A stretch of 64,000 nt of DNA. Origin: Escherichia phage AV123. A program made the position numbers and the translations under genes. This document shows positions 1,878-53,420 of this stretch, piece after piece. The notes below the pieces were generated by a model. It did not search any database, had not been told where the DNA came from, and saw only the letters and a program-made list of their open reading frames with translations. Position 1 is the stretch's first letter; each line of letters opens with the position of its first letter. Where the stretch lies: the sequence record OR352953.1; one strand, written 5' to 3'.

Positions 1878-3614
1878 TTAGTTTACCAGTTTATTTATGT
1901 CTGGTAAAAGATTTATTTCACCTAAAAAATCACCTTCACCTTCCTCTAGCCAACTCTCATATGCTTGTGCATGATTATAGTTACCATCAAAAGAATCTGC
2001 AACAAATTTTTCTACAGTTTTTCGAGATGTGCCAGCGCCAAATACACCAAGTTTAATACCATTGATCGGTAAAGTGGTACTTGTGGGTACTTTCTCTGTT
2101 GCAACACGGTTGATATCTATAATCTCCTGTACGGTTGTGTTCCATTGTAAGCATTTAACACAACGGGTATGCGCTACATACAGTAGGTTTCGCTCTGCCT
2201 CTTCCAGTCCTACCCATTCACCAGTCTTTTTATCATAGTTGGAAGGAAAATCATTAGCAACAATAACCTGATCCCACTCCAAACCTTTAGACTTGTGTGC
2301 TGTAGTCAGTGTGACTTTTGCTGTAGGAGAATTTCTATGCGTTCTAAGTGTATGTGCTATAGTGTTTGCCTTACCAGAAACTACGATGTTTAACAAGCGT
2401 TTAGCATCTGGATCAGCCTCTGCACACTCAACAAATTCATCCCAGTCTGCGTAAGGTAATACAGTTTCATGTTTTACTTTCTCAATATCTCCTCTACGAA
2501 GAGCATTAACACTATCTACCATAGAGATAAAATCCCTGGTATCTACGTTAATAATAATTTCTTCCCCATCTGCAATACGATCCATTGCCTCCATAAGCAA
2601 GGTTAAATTCTTGCGAAAGATGATAGTGTAAGGTTTTGTATAGTCTACAACATCTGATTTGTAGCTACCTACTACAGTATCAAAGCCTTTACCAACCAAA
2701 GGATGACGCAAAGGTTCTTTATCGCTTAAAATCATATTGGCAATGTTTGCCACTTTGGGGCCAAAACGGAAGCAAGCAGTTAATGGAAGCTCTGCCCCAT
2801 ATGTAGAGGTTTCCTTCATCATATTTTGGCTTCCACGGAACTGGTAGATGCTCTGATATTCGTCACCCACCACTACTACTTGTTTTGCAGATTTAGCATT
2901 TCGCAGAATAGACAAGAATGCAGGGTTAACATCCTGGAATTCATCCCCAAAAATAATGTCATAACCAAGATCAGCACCAGACAATTCAAACAATTTTACA
3001 TAGGTGTCATGCGTCATCAAAGTATCTGTATTAGGATCAATGCGCTCTCGCCACAATTGTTTTGCATACTTAACTACTTCTGTAATTAGTTTGTGTTCGT
3101 TAATACCTTTTCTTTTAATATCTGCAAGATGTACACCAGGAAAATGTTTACGGCTGATAAAAGGATCATCCGAAAATTCAAACTTACCTACGGTTTGCTT
3201 GATCATTAAACCAATCATAGCACGAGTTAAAAGTGTTTTCCCTCGCTTATCAATAAGATTATTAATCTTAAATTTCTTTGCTATTTCACTACCTGTACCT
3301 GCAACGTTAACATACTGTCCTTCTGGTCGTGACAGTTTTGCACGTAAACGATGATCCAGGAATTGATAGCAAATAGAATGCAATGTACGGCATTCTACAT
3401 TTAGTGGCATCTTACGTCGTGCTTCTTCTGCCATGCTTTTATTGAAAGCTAAGTAAAGAATGCGATCTTCTGTACTGTTAGCCAGCAAATAAAGTGTTGA
3501 CGTTTTGCCTGATCCAGATTTAGCTTGGATAGTTAAAAAGCGATGGTCTGGAAAAGCCTCCTTAATAGCTGTTTGCTCTTCTGTTGGAGTGAAGCTCAAC
3601 TCTTTCTTAGCCAT
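1878..3614 (-). CDS. UvrD/Rep-like SF1 DNA helicase
   Basis: Walker A AKSGSGKTST, DEFQD, VVVVGDEYQSIYQFRG; start reset to ATG 3612-3614 with GAGAGG RBS. Confidence 0.8.
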   Translation of the reverse strand: MAKKELSFTPTEEQTAIKEAFPDHRFLTIQAKSGSGKTSTLYLLANSTEDRILYLAFNKSMAEEARRKMPLNVECRTLHSICYQFLDHRLRAKLSRPEGQYVNVAGTGSEIAKKFKINNLIDKRGKTLLTRAMIGLMIKQTVGKFEFSDDPFISRKHFPGVHLADIKRKGINEHKLITEVVKYAKQLWRERIDPNTDTLMTHDTYVKLFELSGADLGYDIIFGDEFQDVNPAFLSILRNAKSAKQVVVVGDEYQSIYQFRGSQNMMKETSTYGAELPLTACFRFGPKVANIANMILSDKEPLRHPLVGKGFDTVVGSYKSDVVDYTKPYTIIFRKNLTLLMEAMDRIADGEEIIINVDTRDFISMVDSVNALRRGDIEKVKHETVLPYADWDEFVECAEADPDAKRLLNIVVSGKANTIAHTLRTHRNSPTAKVTLTTAHKSKGLEWDQVIVANDFPSNYDKKTGEWVGLEEAERNLLYVAHTRCVKCLQWNTTVQEIIDINRVATEKVPTSTTLPINGIKLGVFGAGTSRKTVEKFVADSFDGNYNHAQAYESWLEEGEGDFLGEINLLPDINKLVN

Positions 3615-3615
3615 T

Positions 3616-4092
3616 TCAACCTCTCTTAATTTGTTTAACAAGCATAGGAACAAAATCTCGTTTTAAAATTTGTTCAATAATATGATCAGGTAGCTGTTGG
3701 AAATTATAATTAAAAGCTACTGTCTCACCTTTAGGTGTTTCTACCCGCACATATAACATGTTACGAAGTTTATCCACTTGTGCTGTATATTCTAAACCAT
3801 GTAATTGATGCATTGCAAACATCAAATCATCAGTTTCAGTTTGTAATCTATCATTTGCTTGCATCAAGGACAAGGTAAAAGGTAGATTTTCCCTAAGAGC
3901 CACCTTCTTAGGAACTAGTGAAGGAAAATACTCACCAATAACTTCCTGTGTAAGCTGGATACACTCTTTTTCAAGTTGGTTTTGTTCCTTAAGTTCACAA
4001 ACACTTTTTTGTAAAGTGTTAACCTCTTTTTGCAAAGCTGCTAGTTGAGCACTTAACTTTCTTTTTTGATTACGACCAAAACGTTTAGACAT
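3616..4092 (-). CDS. hypothetical protein (coiled-coil N-terminus)
   Basis: 158 aa ORF tightly packed between neighbours. Confidence 0.55.
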   Translation of the reverse strand: MSKRFGRNQKRKLSAQLAALQKEVNTLQKSVCELKEQNQLEKECIQLTQEVIGEYFPSLVPKKVALRENLPFTLSLMQANDRLQTETDDLMFAMHQLHGLEYTAQVDKLRNMLYVRVETPKGETVAFNYNFQQLPDHIIEQILKRDFVPMLVKQIKRG

Positions 4093-4100
4093 ATTTCCCC

Positions 4101-4616
4101 CTAGTAAAACCCTTTAACAATCTGTATTAACTCGGCACAACGGTTGACCAACTTTTCCTCATACAATACACGTTGTGGCATATGTTGTATAATATACTCC
4201 ATTTGCTCATGCCATGTCCACTTTTCTTTTTTGTCTGGGATAACATCACTAGCACGAGAATTATCTTTTAATGTTTGTATAATCCAATTGCTTGGAAAGT
4301 GCTCTCCACCTTTCTTAAATGGTTTATAGTGGCCTAGAGTAAATTGAGAATCCCCTGTTAGAGCACCCAATTTATTTAGATGGATAATCAAACTACGAAA
4401 CACATAGTATTCATAGATGTTATCCACCGTATAGCAAGCATAATATTTCAAGATGCCCTTATCTCGCGGATACTTACCAACATCCAGATTGCACCAGTTG
4501 ACATTTTCTGGATCATAGTGGTGTTCCTTAAGCCATATTTCTCTTTCATCAAAGTCTGGATATATTACCGCTCTGCTTACAGAGTCAACAAGTGGAGATT
4601 GAGCATCAAAAAACAT
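4101..4616 (-). CDS. hypothetical protein
   Basis: 171 aa ORF. Confidence 0.55.
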   Translation of the reverse strand: MFFDAQSPLVDSVSRAVIYPDFDEREIWLKEHHYDPENVNWCNLDVGKYPRDKGILKYYACYTVDNIYEYYVFRSLIIHLNKLGALTGDSQFTLGHYKPFKKGGEHFPSNWIIQTLKDNSRASDVIPDKKEKWTWHEQMEYIIQHMPQRVLYEEKLVNRCAELIQIVKGFY

Positions 4617-4637
4617 TATATTTTCCTTATTGGTTTG

Positions 4638-5003
4638 TTAAACGTTTTCTAAATCTTTTAAGGCATTACCCAACGTTAGAACAATAACATCATTTGCTGC
4701 CTCTTCCCCATTGATATTGGTGAAATTTGGTGTTACAAAAGTAACCATATAAAACTCGTCCACCTGGAAGATAGCAATAACACCATCCATCTTAACATCT
4801 TGACGAAAGGAAAAACCAATCATCTTCTCTTGCAAAGGCATATCCCCTTCCTTCATTACTGCCAGGGAGTCTTCAGGAATGTTATATTTATCTGCTCCGA
4901 TGTAGATGTATGTAATGTTATCTTTATCGTGATGATACAGGGTTGCTTTTTCCATATCTAAACCTGACAGATCAAATACGTTAATTTCTTGTGTAGTCTT
5001 CAT
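4638..5003 (-). CDS. hypothetical protein
   Basis: start reset to ATG 5001-5003 (GGGAGGA RBS); track N-extension overlaps upstream gene. Confidence 0.55.
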   Translation of the reverse strand: MKTTQEINVFDLSGLDMEKATLYHHDKDNITYIYIGADKYNIPEDSLAVMKEGDMPLQEKMIGFSFRQDVKMDGVIAIFQVDEFYMVTFVTPNFTNINGEEAANDVIVLTLGNALKDLENV

Positions 5004-38945: not shown

Positions 38946-38951
38946 GTCAAG

Positions 38952-39764
38952 TTACTTAGTCAAATGATCTTCTATCATTTTTATGAAAGCAGGATTGCTA
39001 AAAGCATCTGCTGCCTTTTCTCTATAAACAAAGACTCCTCTATCTTCGTAAAGAAGAGTTTCTTCGTAATTAATTCCTGGGTTAACAACAATCATTTTTG
39101 TACCCATAGTAAGTGCAGGGAATAATTCCCAATTAAAATTGATAACTTGGTTTGAACATCCTACTACAACAACCAAATCTTGCATGGTCAAAGTATCAAA
39201 CAAGTGAGCCATATCTGCATACAAAGGTGCAGCCTCACCAAAAAATACAACATTAGGCTTCACCCAGTTATAATCATCTATGTTTATACTATTGTAACCA
39301 ATGTCTACCAGTGTTTTGTAATCTCCAGGATGCATACGGTAAACTACTTCAGGGAGATACCCGTGCACGTGAATAACAGAATCCCTGTCCACACCTGCTC
39401 GCTCTAGTAGATCATCGACGTTTGTTGTCAAGTTTACTACTTGGTTAGGATATTCCTTAAACCACTTTGCTATTTGAATATGTGCAGCATTAGGTTGTAC
39501 ATCTTTAAGCTCAACACGTCTTTTGTTATAAAATTCGTGTGTTTTGGCATATAAGTCCATACCGTTCTCGTCTACACCACCGACCACTGGAAGATCTGGA
39601 GATGTTCTCACACGATAACCTGCTTGGAAAGCTCCAATATCGCAGACCTCTTCTAAGTCATATTCTTCCCATAAGGCACGACCACTATCTGTGTCTGTTC
39701 GGAACGTTCGAATCCCACTGTCTGCACTTAAACCTGCGCCACTAACAAAAATTACTCTTCGCAT
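38952..39764 (-). CDS. Sir2-family NAD-dependent deacylase/ADP-ribosyltransferase-like protein
   Basis: GAGLSADSGIRTFR, TTNVDDL, HVHG, VVVVGCS sirtuin motifs; 270 aa. Confidence 0.7.
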   Translation of the reverse strand: MRRVIFVSGAGLSADSGIRTFRTDTDSGRALWEEYDLEEVCDIGAFQAGYRVRTSPDLPVVGGVDENGMDLYAKTHEFYNKRRVELKDVQPNAAHIQIAKWFKEYPNQVVNLTTNVDDLLERAGVDRDSVIHVHGYLPEVVYRMHPGDYKTLVDIGYNSINIDDYNWVKPNVVFFGEAAPLYADMAHLFDTLTMQDLVVVVGCSNQVINFNWELFPALTMGTKMIVVNPGINYEETLLYEDRGVFVYREKAADAFSNPAFIKMIEDHLTK

Positions 39765-45328: not shown

Positions 45329-45901
45329 TTAATGTGTTAATGAAACTGCGTAGCTAAACACAGGTTCAGATATTACATCGGCTACAGTAATAAAAACGTC
45401 TTCGTCTTGAGTTGTTTCTACACGACATACAGTTACACCATTCACCACAAATTCAACGCAATGTGGAATATCTTCACAAACGAAGGTAGTGTAAGTAACA
45501 CCCAAAGCATCATACAAAGATTTAACAGTGTTTGCAAGTGCCGCAGTTTCTTCTTTTTCTGAGACAATGAATGCTGTAACAATAAGATTGTTTGCATAGT
45601 TTAAACTGTCCTCTATAGCCAATGATTTACAAGGTAGTAATGCAAAATATTTACCTGGTTTAATCAGACCTGCTTCCCATTGATTCAAAATTGCCTGGGA
45701 TGGTTTAGTAATATAAAACAGATTTTCACTTGGGTTATCAATATTACTTCTGGCGATACAACGTGAAGGATTATTAATATCAAATACATGATCAAAATCT
45801 ACACAAACAGGTAAACTGAAAGGTGTGAATTTTTTACCTAATAATCCTATGGCTGATAATATGTTTGCTGTGCTTATCTTCCCGTTAAAAGCTAAACGCA
45901 T
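45329..45901 (-). CDS. hypothetical protein
   Basis: 190 aa. Confidence 0.55.
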   Translation of the reverse strand: MRLAFNGKISTANILSAIGLLGKKFTPFSLPVCVDFDHVFDINNPSRCIARSNIDNPSENLFYITKPSQAILNQWEAGLIKPGKYFALLPCKSLAIEDSLNYANNLIVTAFIVSEKEETAALANTVKSLYDALGVTYTTFVCEDIPHCVEFVVNGVTVCRVETTQDEDVFITVADVISEPVFSYAVSLTH

Positions 45902-46845: not shown

Positions 46846-47049
46846 TTAAGTAGTGGTAATATCATCCTCTTGAATACTAGGGTCAACTTCTGCAAAGATA
46901 GCCTCTACAGGAATTTCTTCACCTGCTATTCTAGAAAGAAGCACTGAACCAATAGCTTTTGCGTGTTCTTCGGATTCCGCATAAACATTAGTTCCTGTGT
47001 CTTTTTTCTTAGTTTCGTTAAAATATACCAGATAGTAATTGTATGCCAT
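46846..47049 (-). CDS. small hypothetical protein
   Basis: 67 aa. Confidence 0.45.
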   Translation of the reverse strand: MAYNYYLVYFNETKKKDTGTNVYAESEEHAKAIGSVLLSRIAGEEIPVEAIFAEVDPSIQEDDITTT

Positions 47050-47300
47050 TATTCATCCCAATCGCCGTTACGAGCACTTTCAAGAACCTTGACAACTTCT
47101 GCATACTCTACAGCTAAACCAGCACATACTTCAGCTTGTTTTGCAATTGCTTGTTTAAAGAACATAGCGATTGCAACACTCTGTGTTGTGTGAATGTTAT
47201 CTGCTTTAGTTGATACATGAAGATCAAAATCTTCTTCATCAAAGGTGAGTTCCATAGTAACAATAAATTTCTCGGTCATAAAAATGCTCCTCTTAAACAA
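47049..47300 (-). CDS. small acidic protein
   Basis: 83 aa. Confidence 0.45.
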   Translation of the reverse strand: MFKRSIFMTEKFIVTMELTFDEEDFDLHVSTKADNIHTTQSVAIAMFFKQAIAKQAEVCAGLAVEYAEVVKVLESARNGDWDE

Positions 47301-47802
47301 AATAGAAAGGTTGAGTTAAACCCAGCCTGTTTTTTGGGTCGTAGACGTACCAAGCATATGCTGTCTTATCAGTACCACCTGCAACAAAAGATGGTCGTTC
47401 AGAAAGAACAATTAAATTTGTTGGTGGATTCTGTTTATGGAATTCCCTTCGTTTAATAGACTCTAGGAACCCAAGACGCAACAAGTATATGCAAACGTCT
47501 GCTTCTTTTAAGCTCTTTTGCAAGAACTCAAGTGCAAGTTTGAATGGGGGATTTGTGATTATAATATCCGGCTTAGTATGCCATTCGTGGTTAAAATAAT
47601 CTTTCCCTTCTTCTAACTCACAATATTCTGATCCTTCTGGAAAATGTTGATAAATTGCAGCAGCAGCGCCTTTACACGGTTCTGCAAAAATAAAACCTTC
47701 TTCTTTAAGGTTATTAAAATCTATTACACTAAATAATGCATTTATACATTTTTGTGGAGTAGGATAGTAATCAGTTGGTGGACGATCATACTTATTTGCC
47801 AC
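47293..47802 (-). CDS. DNA N6-adenine (or N4-cytosine) methyltransferase
   Basis: DYYPTP near N-terminus and NPPF motif IV; GTG start per track. Confidence 0.6.
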   Translation of the reverse strand: MANKYDRPPTDYYPTPQKCINALFSVIDFNNLKEEGFIFAEPCKGAAAAIYQHFPEGSEYCELEEGKDYFNHEWHTKPDIIITNPPFKLALEFLQKSLKEADVCIYLLRLGFLESIKRREFHKQNPPTNLIVLSERPSFVAGGTDKTAYAWYVYDPKNRLGLTQPFYFV

Positions 47803-48220
47803 TACTTAAAATCTCCTCTTTTGTGATTTCAGGGTCTTCTTCAAAAACCATAATATCTCTTAAGAACGTTAATTCTTCCATAGATACTGGTATTGTATCT
47901 TCTTCTGTTTTTCGTTTACATAAATCGTCAAGAAAGTTTTTAAAGTTTTCTGACAAATCGTAAAATTTTAACAGTTGATAATCACAGGAGGAGATCCTAT
48001 CTAGTTCTAACATTCTTTCTAAGATATTTTCTGTGTTGCCGTACAACACACGAACTTCTCCGAAAGGGTTAACTGAATATTGTGAAGTTCTGAACCATCC
48101 CTTTTTAGATACAGTGTAACGCTGTTCTGCTAAACTTTCAATAAAATTTTTAGCTCTTTTACAGTTTTGTTCTAAAGAGTAGTAGGCTTTTTCTACAAAG
48201 GTTACAGGTACTGGTAACAT
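47792..48220 (-). CDS. hypothetical protein
   Basis: 142 aa; AGGAGG RBS. Confidence 0.55.
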   Translation of the reverse strand: MLPVPVTFVEKAYYSLEQNCKRAKNFIESLAEQRYTVSKKGWFRTSQYSVNPFGEVRVLYGNTENILERMLELDRISSCDYQLLKFYDLSENFKNFLDDLCKRKTEEDTIPVSMEELTFLRDIMVFEEDPEITKEEILSSGK

Positions 48221-48231
48221 ATCTCCTCCTA

Positions 48232-48252
48232 ATAACCCCCTTGCGGGGGTTT
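48232..48252 (-). terminator. candidate terminator (minus strand)
   Basis: AACCCCCGCAAGGGGGTT hairpin; weak T-run. Confidence 0.4.
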
Positions 48253-48260
48253 ATACTAGA

Positions 48261-48914
48261 TTAATTATCAGAGGACACTTTATCAAGTTTTTCAGAGACT
48301 GTCAATACTTTTTCTTGTGATTCTTTCATTTCTGCTAAAATACTTTCAGCTTCATCACTATCAGGATCACCAGTCAACAGCATACTAATTAGTTGCTCCT
48401 TGCTGAAGTTCAGAATATCTTCCGCTGTTAACTCCAGTTGTTCTTCGATCTCTTCGATAAAAGTTTCACCGCCTGAAAAAGCATCTCGCAGTTTTGCAAC
48501 TTCCATCGCTTCTTCTGGGGTTGCCCCAGCGTCTAAAGCTGCTAAAGCAAAATCTGCCCCACTACCAACAGCATAATAATCTTCAGTTAAAGGATATGCT
48601 CGCGTTGGATTGTTACCCTCGTGCATATAAATTTTACCGTCTGGGTGAACAACTAATGCCACAAACTCTTCATCTTCTTTATCAGGATCTGACTGGATCA
48701 CCAAACCTGGGATTGTCTCTTGTGCTGCTTGGCATTGTAAGTTTTGTTCGAACCAAGAAAAGAAAGTCAGGATAGAAGACAGACGTCCTGCACCACCAAC
48801 AAGGTAATCCCCAATTTTACGCACTTTCTTGAAATTTAAAGTGTCTACACGACTACCTACTGTTACTTTACCATCAGATAGAATTTTGTTATGTGTTGCA
48901 ATAATTGTTGTCAT
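48261..48914 (-). CDS. hslV: HslV-like N-terminal-Thr peptidase with acidic C-terminal extension
   Basis: MTTII N-terminus, KKVRKI, LVGGAG, GSGADFALAA align to HslV/ClpQ pattern; about 45 aa acidic tail. Confidence 0.6.
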   Translation of the reverse strand: MTTIIATHNKILSDGKVTVGSRVDTLNFKKVRKIGDYLVGGAGRLSSILTFFSWFEQNLQCQAAQETIPGLVIQSDPDKEDEEFVALVVHPDGKIYMHEGNNPTRAYPLTEDYYAVGSGADFALAALDAGATPEEAMEVAKLRDAFSGGETFIEEIEEQLELTAEDILNFSKEQLISMLLTGDPDSDEAESILAEMKESQEKVLTVSEKLDKVSSDN

Positions 48915-49405
48915 TGTACTTCCTCCTGTAGTGTTTTAAGGACTGCTTTACCACCGCTTACATATTTACGGAGGTAATCAATAGCTCTTAGTGTTTCTTT
49001 ATCCACAAGAATTTTATTAGTTCTTGTCAATGGATGATTCAGTAAGTCACTGCAATTTCTTACTAACATAGATTTCTTGTGAAAGATACTGCTAAGAAAA
49101 AGAAGTTTAGAATCTTCTTCATCAATCAGGAGTAATTCTGAATTAGACCCAGCTACATTTATTATACACTCAAACAAGCCTTCTTGACTATCAGATAATT
49201 CCTGGTAATATTTAGTTAGCCAATCCTCTCCTTTTAACCAACTAAAAAACATCTGAACTTTTTGCAAAGTTGTCATGTTCTCTAAACGAAGAGATATTTC
49301 TTTTTCAATCTTGTCAATATAAATCTGTCTAAACTCATTCGGCTTAACTAAGCCAGCTTGATAGCATTCATCAATACCATTGCGATCAATCTCAATTAGC
49401 GTCAT
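48911..49405 (-). CDS. hypothetical protein
   Basis: 164 aa. Confidence 0.55.
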   Translation of the reverse strand: MTLIEIDRNGIDECYQAGLVKPNEFRQIYIDKIEKEISLRLENMTTLQKVQMFFSWLKGEDWLTKYYQELSDSQEGLFECIINVAGSNSELLLIDEEDSKLLFLSSIFHKKSMLVRNCSDLLNHPLTRTNKILVDKETLRAIDYLRKYVSGGKAVLKTLQEEVQ

Positions 49406-49441
49406 TTAACCTCCATAATAGGCATCCTTGCCTTGTAATTA

Positions 49442-50194
49442 TTAATATACTTCCGTGATGAACTGAGACAAACGGGAACGTTGGTTATCAGCAGTTGTCA
49501 TTTCAACATAACCAATAAAATCTACAATAGCTTCCCTTTCTCCTTCTTCGTTAATAGGAACAACACGATCTAACAAATCACCTAACCCGTTAGCTCTTCG
49601 TTTAATTGCATATGTTTGATTAACATCGCCCATAATGACAATACGTGTATTAAGACCTGCTCGCTCAAGGAGAAGTTTTACTGTGTTTGGTGACATAAGT
49701 TGAACTTCATCAATAAGAATAATGCTGTTATCCCACGTAGCACCTAGTGCATAGTTCGGAATATTAAGTTCAATTTTGCCACTTGCAATATCGTTTTCCA
49801 ATTTATTTGCAGTCATAAACTGTTGGAAAATTCTTTTAGTTGACTCGTAGTGTGCTGCTAGTTTATCAGTCTTATCTCCAGATAAGAAACCGATTTGGTC
49901 ATCACCTACTTCTGTCGGGTTTTTAAGGAAAATCAACTTTCTGAAGTCACCAGCTTTAAGCATTTGCAATGCTTTCCATAGTGCTGTTGTCGTTTTTCCT
50001 GTTCCTGCTGGGGCATTAACAATGGTTAAATCATTCCAAACCATGCTTCTTACAATAGCTTCTTGATTCCCAACAGGGGTAAATTCATCAAGACGGTAAT
50101 CATCATTTCCTACTGCTTTAGCCGCATAACGACTGGCACGTTTGTCATCATTGGCTGTTGATTGACGACGAGCCTTTGCGGTTTTATTTCCCAT
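49442..50194 (-). CDS. phoH: PhoH-like ATPase
   Basis: Walker A APAGTGKTT, Walker B ILIDEVQ; 250 aa. Confidence 0.8.
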   Translation of the reverse strand: MGNKTAKARRQSTANDDKRASRYAAKAVGNDDYRLDEFTPVGNQEAIVRSMVWNDLTIVNAPAGTGKTTTALWKALQMLKAGDFRKLIFLKNPTEVGDDQIGFLSGDKTDKLAAHYESTKRIFQQFMTANKLENDIASGKIELNIPNYALGATWDNSIILIDEVQLMSPNTVKLLLERAGLNTRIVIMGDVNQTYAIKRRANGLGDLLDRVVPINEEGEREAIVDFIGYVEMTTADNQRSRLSQFITEVY

Positions 50195-50207
50195 GTTTGC
50201 ACTCCTT

Positions 50208-50231
50208 ATAAAAGGGGCTTTCGCCCCTTTG
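50208..50231 (-). terminator. rho-independent terminator (minus strand)
   Basis: AAAGGGGCGAAAGCCCCTTTT. Confidence 0.6.
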
Positions 50232-50232
50232 T

Positions 50233-50733
50233 TTAGTTATAAGCGTCTAATGTTCCAGTTTTAAGCACCTGAATTACACGCTCTGCGCGATTAGGCGTTT
50301 GGCGATACCATTTACTTTTACGTAAATTTATAGAGGCTTGAGTATAATATGAATTACTCACTAAAGTCAAGCTATTTTTGAAAGATTCTGCACCTTTCAA
50401 TCCCATTTGAAATACCATATTAATAATAGCCATTTTACGATTAGGACTTACTTTATCGTAAATAGGAGATAATATGGTGCTTGAATGGATTTGTTGTATC
50501 GCTTTCTTTACGTCACTCTCAAAGATTCTTCTAGCTTCCGCTTCAGTAATAACTCCATTGGTTTTTCTACCTACTAAGTTATCAAGAATGCGTATAGCTT
50601 CTGCTTTATCTTTGAGTTTTGTCAGAAGGTGTCCAATACCAACTGTCCAATACCCTTCGGTATCAGGATATACAGTTAGCTTTAGTCCTTCATCAAAACG
50701 TAACATATCAAACACATCAACTACTTTAGCCAT
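50233..50733 (-). CDS. T4-type lysozyme (GH24 endolysin)
   Basis: FDMLRFDEGLKLTVYPDTEGYWTVGIGHLL matches T4 lysozyme catalytic region. Confidence 0.85.
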   Translation of the reverse strand: MAKVVDVFDMLRFDEGLKLTVYPDTEGYWTVGIGHLLTKLKDKAEAIRILDNLVGRKTNGVITEAEARRIFESDVKKAIQQIHSSTILSPIYDKVSPNRKMAIINMVFQMGLKGAESFKNSLTLVSNSYYTQASINLRKSKWYRQTPNRAERVIQVLKTGTLDAYN

Positions 50734-50745
50734 GTTTTCCTTATA

Positions 50746-50889
50746 TTAGTCGCCCTCCCCATGATCTAGCTCTTGAAACAGTAGGTGTTCAGGAGACATT
50801 TCACGTTTAGGCTTCGTCTTTTTAGTTTGGGACTTAAGCTCTGTTGCCAAAGCACGAGAAAAGATCTTACGTTTCTGTTTACCTTTCAT
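50746..50889 (-). CDS. small basic protein (47 aa)
   Basis: hand-translated; GGAG RBS. Confidence 0.4.
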   Translation of the reverse strand: MKGKQKRKIFSRALATELKSQTKKTKPKREMSPEHLLFQELDHGEGD

Positions 50890-50893
50890 ATTG

Positions 50894-51154
50894 TTACTCC
50901 GCAATCTGAGCCATGAATTCACGTAGTTCAGAAAAACCTCCTACGTGGGTTAGCTGTTCACCATCTTCCACAAAAATCTGAGGAAATGTGCGTGGTAGAA
51001 CACCTGTTTTCTCTACAACCAGATTCTGAATCTGATCTAAAGAATAGTCTTCATCTAAGGTAAGATATTTAAAATCCTGTTCACGCTGTTCTAGTAGAAT
51101 CTTAGCGTTAGTGCAGAAAGGACAATTTGGTTTACCGTAGATAATAAAATTCAT
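50894..51154 (-). CDS. glutaredoxin/thioredoxin-like redoxin
   Basis: CPFC active site; start reset from GTG to ATG 51152-51154 (AAGGAG RBS). Confidence 0.75.
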   Translation of the reverse strand: MNFIIYGKPNCPFCTNAKILLEQREQDFKYLTLDEDYSLDQIQNLVVEKTGVLPRTFPQIFVEDGEQLTHVGGFSELREFMAQIAE

Positions 51155-51156
51155 TT

Positions 51157-51987
51157 TCACTCCTTGTTTAAAAGTATAGTTAAAGTTCTTACAATACCGC
51201 TATCAACACTTCGCGGATTTAAAGTAGGATCTGTTTTTAAATAAGATGTTGCTGGTCTGACTGCTTTGGAATTATAGGTTGAAGCAGATACAGGATTAAC
51301 TGTAACAGACAAATCTACAACAAGAAATATCTTTCGTGCAAAATCATACCAAGAAATATAATCTGCACCTGCATAGTGTACAATTTTACTATTTACACCA
51401 TCTTTTACAAGTTTAAAAATTGTTTCTGCAAGATCAGGTGCATAAGTAGGACATGATAAATGATCACATACTACATTAAATTCTTTTTGACCACCGTTGT
51501 AGCGTTCCAACATAGTTTTCAAAAAGTTATGTCCAAATTCACTATAAACAGAAGCTGTTCTGATAATAAGTGCTGTAGGACAAACTGTTTGTACTAAAGT
51601 TTCACCTAATTGTTTACTGTAACCGTAGGTGTTCAAGGGGTTTGTTTTACTATCTTCTGTGCCAGCAACATGCCCATCAAAAACATAGTCTGTTGAAATA
51701 TGTACAAACTGTATCAGTAAATCATTACATGCTTTGGCAATGTTTGTTGCACCGTATGCATTAACATTTATACAGGTGTTAACATCTTCTTCAGCTTTAT
51801 CTACTGCCGTGTAAGCCGCACAATTCACAACAACATCAGGCACATGCTGTACAAGACTATTCATAACATCTTTAAAGTTGGTAATGTCTACATCACTTGC
51901 TTCAATCAAAATAACATCTTCGGGCGCAACTTTTGCCAAAGACTGTCCTAATTGACCTTTTGAACCAAAGATTAAAAATTTTGTCAA
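51157..51987 (-). CDS. rmlD: dTDP-4-dehydrorhamnose reductase
   Basis: FGSKGQLG Rossmann motif, RmlD-like length; TTG start overlapping rmlC stop. Confidence 0.75.
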   Translation of the reverse strand: MTKFLIFGSKGQLGQSLAKVAPEDVILIEASDVDITNFKDVMNSLVQHVPDVVVNCAAYTAVDKAEEDVNTCINVNAYGATNIAKACNDLLIQFVHISTDYVFDGHVAGTEDSKTNPLNTYGYSKQLGETLVQTVCPTALIIRTASVYSEFGHNFLKTMLERYNGGQKEFNVVCDHLSCPTYAPDLAETIFKLVKDGVNSKIVHYAGADYISWYDFARKIFLVVDLSVTVNPVSASTYNSKAVRPATSYLKTDPTLNPRSVDSGIVRTLTILLNKE

Positions 51988-52538
51988 AATATGATCTCCT
52001 TTAGTGTTTTGGCTTGCTGATCTTTTTGTGACAAGATAGGTTTAAAATTAATATCATTAAAGATTAAATCAAAACCCCAATCAATATTGATATCTGGATC
52101 ATTCCACGCAAGACTACACTCTGAAGTCGGATCGTAATACTCTGTACATTTATATTCAAAATCAGCAATGTCACTAATCACAACAAAGCCATGAGCGAAA
52201 CCAGGAGGAATCCAAAATTGTGTTTTATTCTTTTCAGATAAGAGAACACCTACCCATTCTCCAAATGTTGGACTACCAACCCTAATATCTACAGCAACAT
52301 CATAAACTTCACCACGAACACAACGTACTAACTTCCCTTGTGGGTTTTTCTTTTGAAAATGAAGCCCACGTAGAACTCCTCGAATAGAACGTGAATGGTT
52401 GTCTTGGACAAAGTTTTGTTTACCTATGTATTGATCATATAAAGCCTGATTAAAACTTTCTAAGAAAAAACCACGTTCATCTCCGTAAACGTCAGGTTGA
52501 ATGATCAACAAATCTTCGATTTTTGTTGCTTGAATCAT
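51984..52538 (-). CDS. rmlC: dTDP-4-dehydrorhamnose 3,5-epimerase
   Basis: GDERGFF..F and RGLHFQ cupin motifs; 184 aa. Confidence 0.8.
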   Translation of the reverse strand: MIQATKIEDLLIIQPDVYGDERGFFLESFNQALYDQYIGKQNFVQDNHSRSIRGVLRGLHFQKKNPQGKLVRCVRGEVYDVAVDIRVGSPTFGEWVGVLLSEKNKTQFWIPPGFAHGFVVISDIADFEYKCTEYYDPTSECSLAWNDPDINIDWGFDLIFNDINFKPILSQKDQQAKTLKEIIF

Positions 52539-52550
52539 TTAATTCCCCCT

Positions 52551-53420
52551 TTATTTTAATTTAAGTAAATACTTACCGTAGTCTGTTTTACTTAAAACCT
52601 CTCCAGAACTTTTTACAGAGTCTAAAGTAATCCATTCATTTTTAAAAGCAATCTCTTCCAGGCATGCAACCTTCATACCTTGTTGCTTTTCTATTGCATG
52701 AACAAATTGAGATGCTTCCATAAGACTTTCATGTGTTCCTGTATCCAGCCAAGTGAAACCTCTTCCTAGTTTACAGACACGTAAAGCCTTTTCTTTCCAG
52801 TACATATCATTTATATCTGTAATCTCTAACTCCCCTCTAGCAGAAGGTTTAACGCTTTTAGCTTTCTGTATAACAGAATTATCGTAAAAGTACAAGCCTG
52901 TGATTGCATAGTTGCTTTTTGGTGCTTTTGGTTTTTCTTCAATACTCACCACTGTACCTTCAGAATCAAACTCAACAACACCAAATCTTTCAGGATCATT
53001 TACGTGATACCCAAAAATATTAGCTCCACCATTCTTCTCAATATGTTCTTTAGCAGAATCTAAAATGCTACCAAAACTCTGACCAAAGAATAAATTATCA
53101 CCTAGCACAAGTGCTACAGAATCTTCACCAATAAAGTTCTCACCAATAATAAACGCTTCTGCTAAACCTCTTGGGCTATCCTGTATTGCATACTGTAGGG
53201 AAATACCAAAAGAGGAACCATCACCTAGAAGATTTACAAAATTAATTTGATCTTCTGGTGTTGTAATTATTAGTATTTCCCTAATTCCAGAAAGCATTAG
53301 GACAGAGAGTGGATAATAAATCATAGGCTTATCATAAATTGGTAATAGTTGTTTACTAACCCCTTTAGTAACTGGGTAAAGTCTTGTTCCACTACCACCT
53401 GCTAAGATAATACCTTTCAT
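52551..53420 (-). CDS. rmlA: glucose-1-phosphate thymidylyltransferase
   Basis: [19 protein letters not shown]-terminus; 289 aa. Confidence 0.85.

Follow-up and report, generated by a model that had tools for sequence, protein, structure and literature searches.

We propose that the gene at positions 48,261..48,914 (minus strand) of the 64-kb stretch of phage DNA analyzed here (the window) encodes a propeptide-less threonine hydrolase of a phage-specific, H2-less branch resembling PPH and RPC, which carries a C-terminal module of its own, works independently of HslU, and is accessory to the phage. The probability of this composite reading is put at roughly 0.55; for the enzyme class alone it is much higher, and for the physiological role much lower. 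The peptidase is no ortholog of HslV but a member of a phage-specific branch lacking helix H2.

The source DNA comes from an Escherichia myovirus of the phi92-like type (genus Justusliebigvirus), and positions 47,000–51,000 of the window are 99.2% identical to phage phi92 and 98.6–99.4% identical to dozens of relatives. The ORF beginning with MTTII, as described in the initial annotation, is real and has exactly the span given above on the minus strand. It encodes 217 amino acids plus a stop codon, and the N terminus of the product is MTTIIATHNK. The ribosome-binding site AGGAGG (48,922–48,927, minus strand) is located 7 nt upstream of the ATG, and an RBS is also annotated in phi92. This site is within the 3′ end of the upstream ORF (gp59), whose stop codon shares 4 nt (ATGA) with the start of the peptidase gene. 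The product is the ortholog of Phi92_gp058, which RefSeq labels "peptidase HslV family" and further describes as "putative 20S proteasome." An identical protein (100%) from Escherichia phages inny and arall was deposited as "hypothetical protein," and further members of the cluster carry the names "20S proteasome" or "HslVU peptidase subunit." The presence of an HslV-family gene in phi92-like phages is already known from the phi92 gp058 annotation, PHROG 1040, and the survey by Fuchs et al. (2021). The peptidase gene is separated from gp57 by a 40-nt spacer, in which a GC-rich sequence (CCCCC-TTG-GGGGG; 48,237..48,249, no strand assigned) may form a hairpin that ends or stabilizes the transcript. 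A scan for promoters and terminators gave counts indistinguishable from those of shuffled sequences.

The proteasome-like core consists of residues 1–155 (48,450..48,914, minus strand), as delimited by an AF2 model (pLDDT of 88–98), Foldseek, invariant alignment columns, and hhalign. Residues 1–212 matched phrog_1040 ("peptidase HslV family") with an E-value of 9e-62, and the score against the Pfam Proteasome family (PF00227) was 25.0 bits, above the gathering score of 22.4. A phmmer search of the PDB retrieved HslV chains (best E-value of 9e-8; ~35 bits), and hhalign of Escherichia coli HslV against the peptidase family alignment gave a probability of 97.9% and an E-value of 6e-13. The AF2 model, which was built with 34 homologs, had a mean pLDDT of 89 and a pTM of 0.72. 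Its core elements are a β-sandwich, H1 (residues 45–67), H3 (120–128), H4 (133–143), and the last core strand (152–155). The best Foldseek matches in the PDB were HslV (1e-10; TM score of ~0.66 on the target), 20S β subunits of both archaeal and eukaryotic origin, and BPH, with E-values ranging from 1e-10 to 1e-8. The HslV/ClpQ pattern that the initial annotation had recognized at several positions is therefore borne out by the PHROG, hhalign, and Foldseek results, which place the resemblance to HslV and the proteasome well outside what chance would give. That annotation had made its proposal depend on an Ntn-hydrolase fold; because this fold is present in the AF2 model and its Foldseek matches, the observation stands.

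Two alignments, of 34 and of 38 homologs that include some only ~30% identical, show no or almost no variation at T2, D14, K30, G41/G43, and G117-S118-G119. Aligned with these positions in HslV are Thr1, Asp17, Lys33, the Gly45 region, and Ser124, respectively. The model, Foldseek, and the alignment thus find in the peptidase both the αββα Ntn fold and the set of Thr, Asp, Lys, oxyanion Gly, and GSG. Codon 2 (48,909..48,911, minus strand) encodes the Thr predicted, from its invariance in homologs, to be the N-terminal nucleophile after removal of Met. The MTT start is found in 118 of the 150 family representatives, and a Thr/Ser-type second residue in 135 of them. E. coli HslV has the N terminus VTTIV... 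without a propeptide, the phage peptidase is likewise propeptide-less, and the HslV chains in the PDB begin at Thr. The specificity of methionine aminopeptidase is well established and forms the basis for the expected removal of Met1. Exposure of Thr1 by this enzyme is expected since the MTT start is common to the family and E. coli HslV, and crystallized HslV begins at Thr. Judging from the sequence and the model, the peptidase is likely an active Ntn hydrolase with a complete catalytic set.

The similarity to HslV does not extend to HslV proper. The scores against the two NCBIfam HslV equivalogs were below both cut-offs (33.3 versus 137 bits for NF003964 and 31.1 versus 157.75 bits for TIGR03692). 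A tblastn search of 50,697 phage records with E. coli HslV (E ≤ 1e-3) retrieved none of the 166 records bearing this gene; the matches in phage records were only host-derived fragments and Gram-positive records. When the family profile was searched against the PDB, HslV (2e-14) and 20S β5 (1e-13) were matched about equally, and no solved structure closer than these two was found. An exhaustive search of 1.84 billion representatives gave 1993 matches at E ≤ 1e-3. The nearest relatives fall into two groups: ~68 "long" proteins (180–350 amino acids), which align through residue ~185–210, and ~68 "short" proteins (130–165 amino acids, beginning with MTT), which align in the core only, at 55–75 bits. 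The nearest proteins beyond the long-type group are phage proteins of ~130–155 amino acids with the MTT start, at 55–75 bits as opposed to ~35 bits for HslV; these small proteins recall the H2-less PPH/RPC homologs of Fuchs et al. (2021). The missed equivalog cut-offs, the failure of HslV to retrieve the family by tblastn, the equal match to β5, and the closer short phage proteins together show that the peptidase is not HslV proper. Hence, of the "HslV-like N-terminal-threonine peptidase" in the initial annotation, the superfamily, the catalytic set, and the absence of a propeptide hold, whereas an identity with HslV itself does not.

A pattern scan for the long type, able to detect no more than fairly close relatives, covered one genome per species of 185,579 bacterial and archaeal species and yielded one contig of 425 bp; all remaining long-type copies are in phage records or contigs. 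The long-type family looks confined to virulent phages, a distribution that we did not find in earlier descriptions. Known hosts of the phages carrying the gene are E. coli, Klebsiella, Vibrio, Aeromonas, and Shewanella.

The most conspicuous departure from HslV within the core is at H2. In place of H2 and the pore loop, the peptidase has an acidic, proline-containing loop of 17 residues (residues 68–84, ETIPGLVIQSDPDKEDEEF; 48,663..48,713, minus strand), which is non-helical in the AF2 model (pLDDT of ~81–90) and is followed by a strand. The hhalign alignment to E. coli HslV places two gaps, ~14 residues in total, across H2, so that the absence of this helix is read from one AF2 model and one profile alignment. 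In 53 long-type representatives, the loop segment has on average 17 residues, a net charge of −4.2, and 2.2 prolines. HslU's C-terminal tails activate HslV by entering pockets between neighboring HslV subunits, and the pocket is formed by Phe54 and Phe57 (H1), Ala79 and Lys80 (H2), and Gln114 (PMC6429459). In the peptidase, the H2 contributors are missing and Gln114 aligns with Pro108 (hhalign). The H1 side is kept, with I48 and F51 aligning with Phe54 and Phe57, respectively. What is found in the peptidase is thus the H1 part only, and neither H2 nor a complete pocket for the HslU C-terminal tail. In HslU-gated HslV, the pore loop following H1/H2 is very short (Fuchs et al., PMC8665760).

No HslU-like sequence was detected in the window by tblastn with E. 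coli HslU (E ≤ 10), in line with the remark in the initial annotation that no such ATPase is nearby, and none was detected in 64 related loci at E ≤ 1e-3. HslU-like genes exist in other phages, mainly Erwinia and Salmonella jumbo phages. A hybrid protease in which the phage peptidase docks on host HslU hexamers and redirects this ATP-dependent unfoldase would suit a phage that encodes no unfoldase of its own and whose known hosts all possess HslUV, and H1 with its two pocket residues, including the counterpart of Phe57, is present. We nevertheless consider this hybrid unlikely. The H2 residues Ala79 and Lys80 have given way to a loop, the position of Gln114 is taken by Pro, the likeness to HslV is no greater than that to 20S β5, the equivalog cut-offs are missed four- to fivefold, and a long acidic loop occupies the place where HslU-gated HslV has its short pore loop. 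The pairing with host HslU suggested in the initial annotation is therefore not supported by the sequence comparisons and the model, and any use of host HslU by the peptidase would require a different docking mode.

The other role raised in the initial annotation was that of a dominant-negative protein. A decoy that co-assembles with host HslV or titrates HslU, and thereby shuts down host HslUV, would draw on nothing more than an overall likeness within the family and a plausible high level of early co-expression. It fits poorly because every catalytic residue is strictly conserved across the family, which points to an active enzyme. Moreover, the identity of ~25%, the loss of H2, and the reshaped loop make mixed rings unlikely, and the HslU pocket is incomplete. 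We regard such a decoy as very improbable.

The second departure from HslV is at the C terminus. The extension past the last core strand comprises ~60 residues (156–217) with a net charge of −12. The initial annotation had described an acidic C-terminal tail of ~45 amino acids; its acidic character was correct and ~45 is the length difference from HslV, but the extension itself is ~60 amino acids long and contains a conserved, family-specific module. This module, recognized by conservation and AF2, spans residues 156–186 (48,357..48,449, minus strand) and has two short helices after an acidic linker (…LTAEDILNFSKEQLISMLLTG…). It is followed by a variable acidic tail (residues 187–217; 48,264..48,356, minus strand; AF2 and alignment), which is predicted with lower confidence as one long helix. 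The C-terminal helices in the AF2 model are at residues 164–169 and 172–181 (pLDDT of ~84–88) and at residues 188–214. The pattern of the module is an acidic linker followed by L-T-x-E-(E/D)-h-x-x-(M/L)-(S/T)-K-E-(E/Q)-L-h-x-x-h-F-(G/P), or in short form LTxE..MSKEEL..FG, and it is kept in 53 long-type representatives that are 30–60% identical. The strict motif occurs in 38 of 68 long representatives versus none of 68 short ones. The region after the module is variable and is net acidic in 93% of the long-type representatives; many relatives carry additional domains past the module, some of them Cys-rich. When every ORF in the window and in 66 loci was searched with an HMM of the module, the peptidase family alone was matched, and a peptide common to other phage proteins was accordingly rejected. 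Pfam gave no match for isolated C-terminal fragments. HeH/SAP-type nucleic acid-binding motifs were considered for the far C termini of the long relatives, and Pfam at E ≤ 10 returned nothing relevant. The conserved C-terminal module was not found in earlier descriptions.

These two departures also bear on a non-proteolytic Ntn chemistry, in which the protein would be a sequence-specific processing enzyme or a ligase like connectase, possibly as a monomer or small oligomer. The loss of H2 echoes connectase, a monomeric member of the same superfamily without H1 and H2, and the added C-terminal module could give specificity. On the other hand, the model lacks the connectase-type S3–S4 insertion, and the nearest structural matches are the ring-forming HslV, 20S β, and BPH. 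This chemistry appears to us decidedly unlikely, and a peptide-hydrolyzing Thr enzyme is preferred.

The peptidase gene is located within a long minus-strand block of early/middle-type genes, including those for RNR subunits, glutaredoxin, dTDP-rhamnose synthesis, T4-type lysozyme, PhoH, and methyltransferases, and the same block also has a Ser/Thr phosphatase, a DprA-like gene, Sir2, and an invertase. The initial annotation had rightly named PhoH and lysozyme as neighbors. A PhoH-like P-loop ATPase (250 amino acids with a basic N-terminal region of ~40 residues; 49,442..50,194, minus strand) is one gene away, and the T4-type lysozyme (50,233..50,733) is two genes away. Between PhoH and the peptidase is gp59 (164 amino acids, phrog_14834; 48,911..49,405, minus strand; ORF and AF2). 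The grouping with genes of nucleotide metabolism and host takeover (RNR, glutaredoxin, lysozyme, PhoH, and gp59), and not with head genes, suggests an accessory intracellular role. That the gene encodes the prohead (head maturation) protease is extremely unlikely. It is a phage-encoded protein of a protease family, but it is on the opposite strand among nucleotide-metabolism genes, and Eryne, a relative with 98.6% identity, encodes a "head maturation protease" of its own (371 amino acids) at the canonical place between the portal and decoration/major head genes. Furthermore, a genome record without the catalytic N terminus exists (VEcB, MT932211). The absence of a head-maturation context remarked on in the initial annotation is thus confirmed.

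The gene order PhoH–gp59–peptidase is kept in 23 loci in which the peptidase is at least 43% identical. In these loci gp59 is directly upstream of the peptidase gene, with the exception of one (L065), in which a single 92-aa ORF intervenes. PhoH is linked to the long-type peptidase gene, within 3 kb, in 27 of 27 long-type loci and is near the short-type gene in one of 36 loci. In distant Vibrio (qdvp001), Aeromonas (2L372D), and Shewanella (1/40) phages, whose peptidases show 32–35% identity, PhoH is 0.1–3 kb upstream. BLASTP and an iterated profile search found no gp59 homologs in the Vibrio and Aeromonas phage loci, and gp59 is likewise absent from the Shewanella locus and the contig L026. 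The gene order in L026 is peptidase, two small membrane-like ORFs, PhoH (~700 bp away), and a portal-like gene. The gp59 family is narrow (34 clusters, no Pfam match), and its invariant motifs include C14-Y15, VKPNE-RQI, C-S-D, and DKETLRA. The AF2 model of gp59 (pLDDT of 94) is all-helical and gave no informative fold match in the PDB. Homology between gp59 and the peptidase was considered, and the two proved unrelated on comparison. Two PhoH subtypes occupy the linked position, and no C-terminal motif is common to both. A C-terminal docking tail of PhoH (HbYX, GQYL, or HslU-like) was discarded as a candidate, since "…ITE[VLI][YF]" occurs in only one of the two subtypes. The N termini of PhoH are consistently basic, and the tails of the peptidase are consistently acidic. 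The PADLOC defense/anti-defense libraries contained no match for the peptidase, gp59, or gp57. Neither the PhoH linkage of the long-type peptidase nor the gp59 linkage in closer relatives was found in earlier descriptions.

A natural deletion variant of this block, which was also not found in earlier descriptions, is present in a GenBank record of phage VEcB (MT932211). Compared with the window, MT932211 has a 1,121-bp deletion (~48,730–49,850) flanked by a 9-bp direct repeat, AGCAGCACA (microhomology). The deletion takes half of PhoH together with the entire gp59 and the N-terminal catalytic part of the peptidase, and leaves an in-frame fusion of PhoH(1–113) to peptidase(63–217). A second VEcB record is intact. 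If the deleted genome represents a viable stock, the PhoH–gp59–peptidase block would be dispensable in the laboratory, which would be typical of accessory host-interaction genes.

The linkage and the deletion raise the question of whether the PhoH–gp59–peptidase block is one functional unit, in which the peptidase would have PhoH and/or gp59 as its partner, adaptor, regulator, or substrate, perhaps via the acidic module. The contrast between long-type and short-type loci in their association with PhoH, which holds even in the rearranged L026, is consistent with such a unit, as are the position of gp59 directly or almost directly upstream at identities of at least 43%, its translational coupling in this phage, the single deletion that hits all three genes together, and the pairing of basic PhoH N termini with acidic peptidase tails. 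However, the linkage of PhoH is perhaps inherited gene order, because the whole RNR–glutaredoxin–lysozyme–PhoH–…–resolvase module is collinear in related myoviruses. The two PhoH subtypes share no C-terminal docking motif, gp59 is missing from L026 and from the loci of the Vibrio, Aeromonas, and Shewanella phages and offers no informative fold match, and PhoH is helicase-like, not an AAA+ unfoldase. On balance, a functional unit seems to us rather unlikely. A more specific version, a three-part phage protease system in which the acidic module recruits PhoH (a non-AAA+ P-loop ATPase, through its basic N-terminal tail) or gp59 as adaptor or regulator and which virulent myoviruses would use for host takeover or counter-defense, is a speculation to which we give little credence.

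Here, we propose how the peptidase may work as an HslU-independent accessory enzyme. In the first step, host methionine aminopeptidase would strip Met1 and expose the Thr nucleophile, as suggested by the MTTI N terminus resembling that of E. coli HslV. In the second step, peptide bonds would be hydrolyzed by a center of Thr1, Asp(14), and Lys(30), with participation of the oxyanion region (GxxG) and the GSG loop, an activity predicted from the alignments and the model. The loop that appears to replace the HslU-docking H2 recalls the acidic pore loop of BPH, a homolog independent of unfoldases. The enzyme is most likely independent of HslU, because a long acidic loop stands where H2 would be and no HslU-type ATPase is encoded by the phage. 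The acidic loop and the C-terminal helical module may instead control substrate access or partner binding; as judged from ring-forming homologs, the module would point away from the ring. The peptidase would thus be assembled and regulated differently from HslV. Isolated proteasome-type subunits are generally inactive outside the assembled ring (PMC8665760). During infection, the enzyme would probably act as a non-essential, accessory intracellular peptidase on host or phage proteins.

A literature search on phage HslV/PPH proteins or a link between PhoH and HslV returned annotation-level mentions only and no experimental study. Phage-encoded proteasome homologs have been catalogued bioinformatically, and we know of none whose substrate, partner, assembly state, or phenotype has been established. 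Few phage genes of unknown function are as widespread as PhoH, and even a modest functional link of the peptidase to it would be useful. The three-part system of PhoH, gp59, and the peptidase, if true, would provide the first function for a phage PhoH and a new kind of regulated proteasome-like protease. Since the protein is not "a phage HslV," the focus moves from host HslU to the C-terminal module, the acidic loop, PhoH, and gp59. The details of the subfamily (module, linkage, distribution, and deletion) sharpen the question without changing its category. The role of the peptidase is tractable because the E. coli phages that carry it are easy to work with (phi92 and its relatives, many of which were isolated on K-12 hosts) and a naturally deleted genome variant exists.

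Comparison with known systems places the peptidase among proteasome-like proteins as follows. It shares with HslV the (M)TTI N terminus, the lack of a propeptide, the equivalents of Thr1, Asp17, Lys33, Gly45, and Ser124, and the core fold, and HslV chains are its best PDB matches. It differs from HslV in lacking H2, the complete pocket, and an adjacent hslU and in having the acidic loop and the C-terminal module of ~60 amino acids. The 20S β subunit (β5 type) is matched by the family profile about as well as HslV is, and the PF00227 threshold is passed; however, the peptidase has no propeptide, no α-type partner, and no H2, and its core is much smaller. BPH belongs to the group-I proteasome-like proteins; its pore loop is long and highly acidic, and no unfoldase partner is known for it (PMC8665760). 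It is among the top fold matches of the peptidase (PDB IDs: 5OVS and 5OVT), and its pore loop recalls the acidic loop of the peptidase, whereas BPH keeps H2, forms heptameric double rings, is bacterial, and is only 17–18% identical. The resemblance of the loops is an analogy and not an alignment, as the 17-residue acidic loop of the peptidase replaces H2 and does not follow it. BPH, the model for unfoldase independence, is itself without a demonstrated substrate. The proteasome-like homologs PPH and RPC lack H2 (Fuchs, Alva, and Lupas 2021, PMC8665760). RPC was reported only from proteobacterial genomes, whereas the long-type peptidase was found only in phage DNA. PPH has ~140 amino acids, as opposed to the 217 of the peptidase, with a core of ~155 and the conserved extension of ~60. 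The peptidase resembles a PPH-like core joined to a C-terminal region without a match to known structures, as Pfam finds nothing in its extension. Its likeness to PPH and RPC, as judged by features, lies in its phage-borne gene, the lack of a propeptide, the conserved Thr/Asp/Lys center, and the absence of H2.

The PhoH gene (window 49442-50194, minus strand) encodes a P-loop ATPase and is located one gene away from the peptidase gene; it was compared with the PhoH genes of the related phage loci L002-L004 and L063-L065. Two distinct PhoH subtypes, differing between phages, occupy the same position adjoining the peptidase gene in the window and these loci. The N-terminal tails of ~40 amino acids are strongly basic in both subtypes, and their charge is opposite to that of the acidic C-terminal tails of the long-type peptidases. 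The architecture of the peptidase–PhoH region on an 82-kb viral contig (L026, 8001-10017) is unlike that of the window, as a 193-aa long-type homolog, two small membrane-like ORFs, PhoH, and a portal-like gene are arranged in this order. The PhoH of L026 is 50% identical to that of the window, and the PhoH–peptidase linkage is kept despite the rearrangement.

A natural deletion of 1,121 bp, corresponding to window ~48730-49850, was found in the record MT932211 of phage VEcB. Its ends are 9-bp direct repeats (AGCAGCACA), and the remaining parts form an in-frame fusion of PhoH residues 1-113 with peptidase residues 63-217 (MT932211.1, locus L068, 2165-2968). The gp59 gene is lost in this deletion. 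The region is intact in the second VEcB record (OZ035773). Under laboratory conditions, the phage can probably do without PhoH, gp59, and the peptidase. The gp59 gene (window 48911-49405, minus strand), directly upstream of the peptidase gene, encodes a 164-aa protein of a narrow family. Its predicted structure is all-helical with very high confidence (pLDDT 94), and structural and sequence comparison gave no match. Cys14, Cys118, and the motifs VKPNE-RQI, CSD, and DKETLRA are invariant.

GC-rich hairpins are present at window 48237-48249, 49420-49433, and 50211-50230, each in one of three successive intergenic spacers within the lysozyme–PhoH–gp59–peptidase–gp57 run; the overall count of terminator-like elements was not above that of shuffles. 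The dTDP-rhamnose pathway set (thymidylyltransferase, 3,5-epimerase, reductase, and 4,6-dehydratase; window 51157-53420 and upstream, minus strand) shares an early block with a Sir2-like gene (window ~38951-39763), and DprA-like and NinI-type phosphatase genes are also located there. The ORF at window 45329-45901 (minus strand) is annotated as "histidyl tRNA synthetase" in phi92 and ESCO13. Its 190 aa fall far below the length of an entire HisRS, and the ORF may thus be a fragment, paralog, or mis-annotation.

MG065656 (Campylobacter phage C3) and MG065650 (B15) are labelled as Campylobacter jejuni phages. They carry proteins that are identical or near-identical to those of phi92-like and phAPEC8-like Escherichia coli phages, with values of 99% and 72% against the query, and the host labels look doubtful.

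Aeromonas phage 2L372D (L003) has two adjoining proteasome-like genes of different subfamilies (3432-3983 and 4001-4885). The products are a 183-aa protein starting with (M)TCIIA and similar to the ~180-aa proteins P0079 and P0080, and a long-type protein of 294 aa. The two proteins could form a two-subunit arrangement, which the phi92-like phages do not have.
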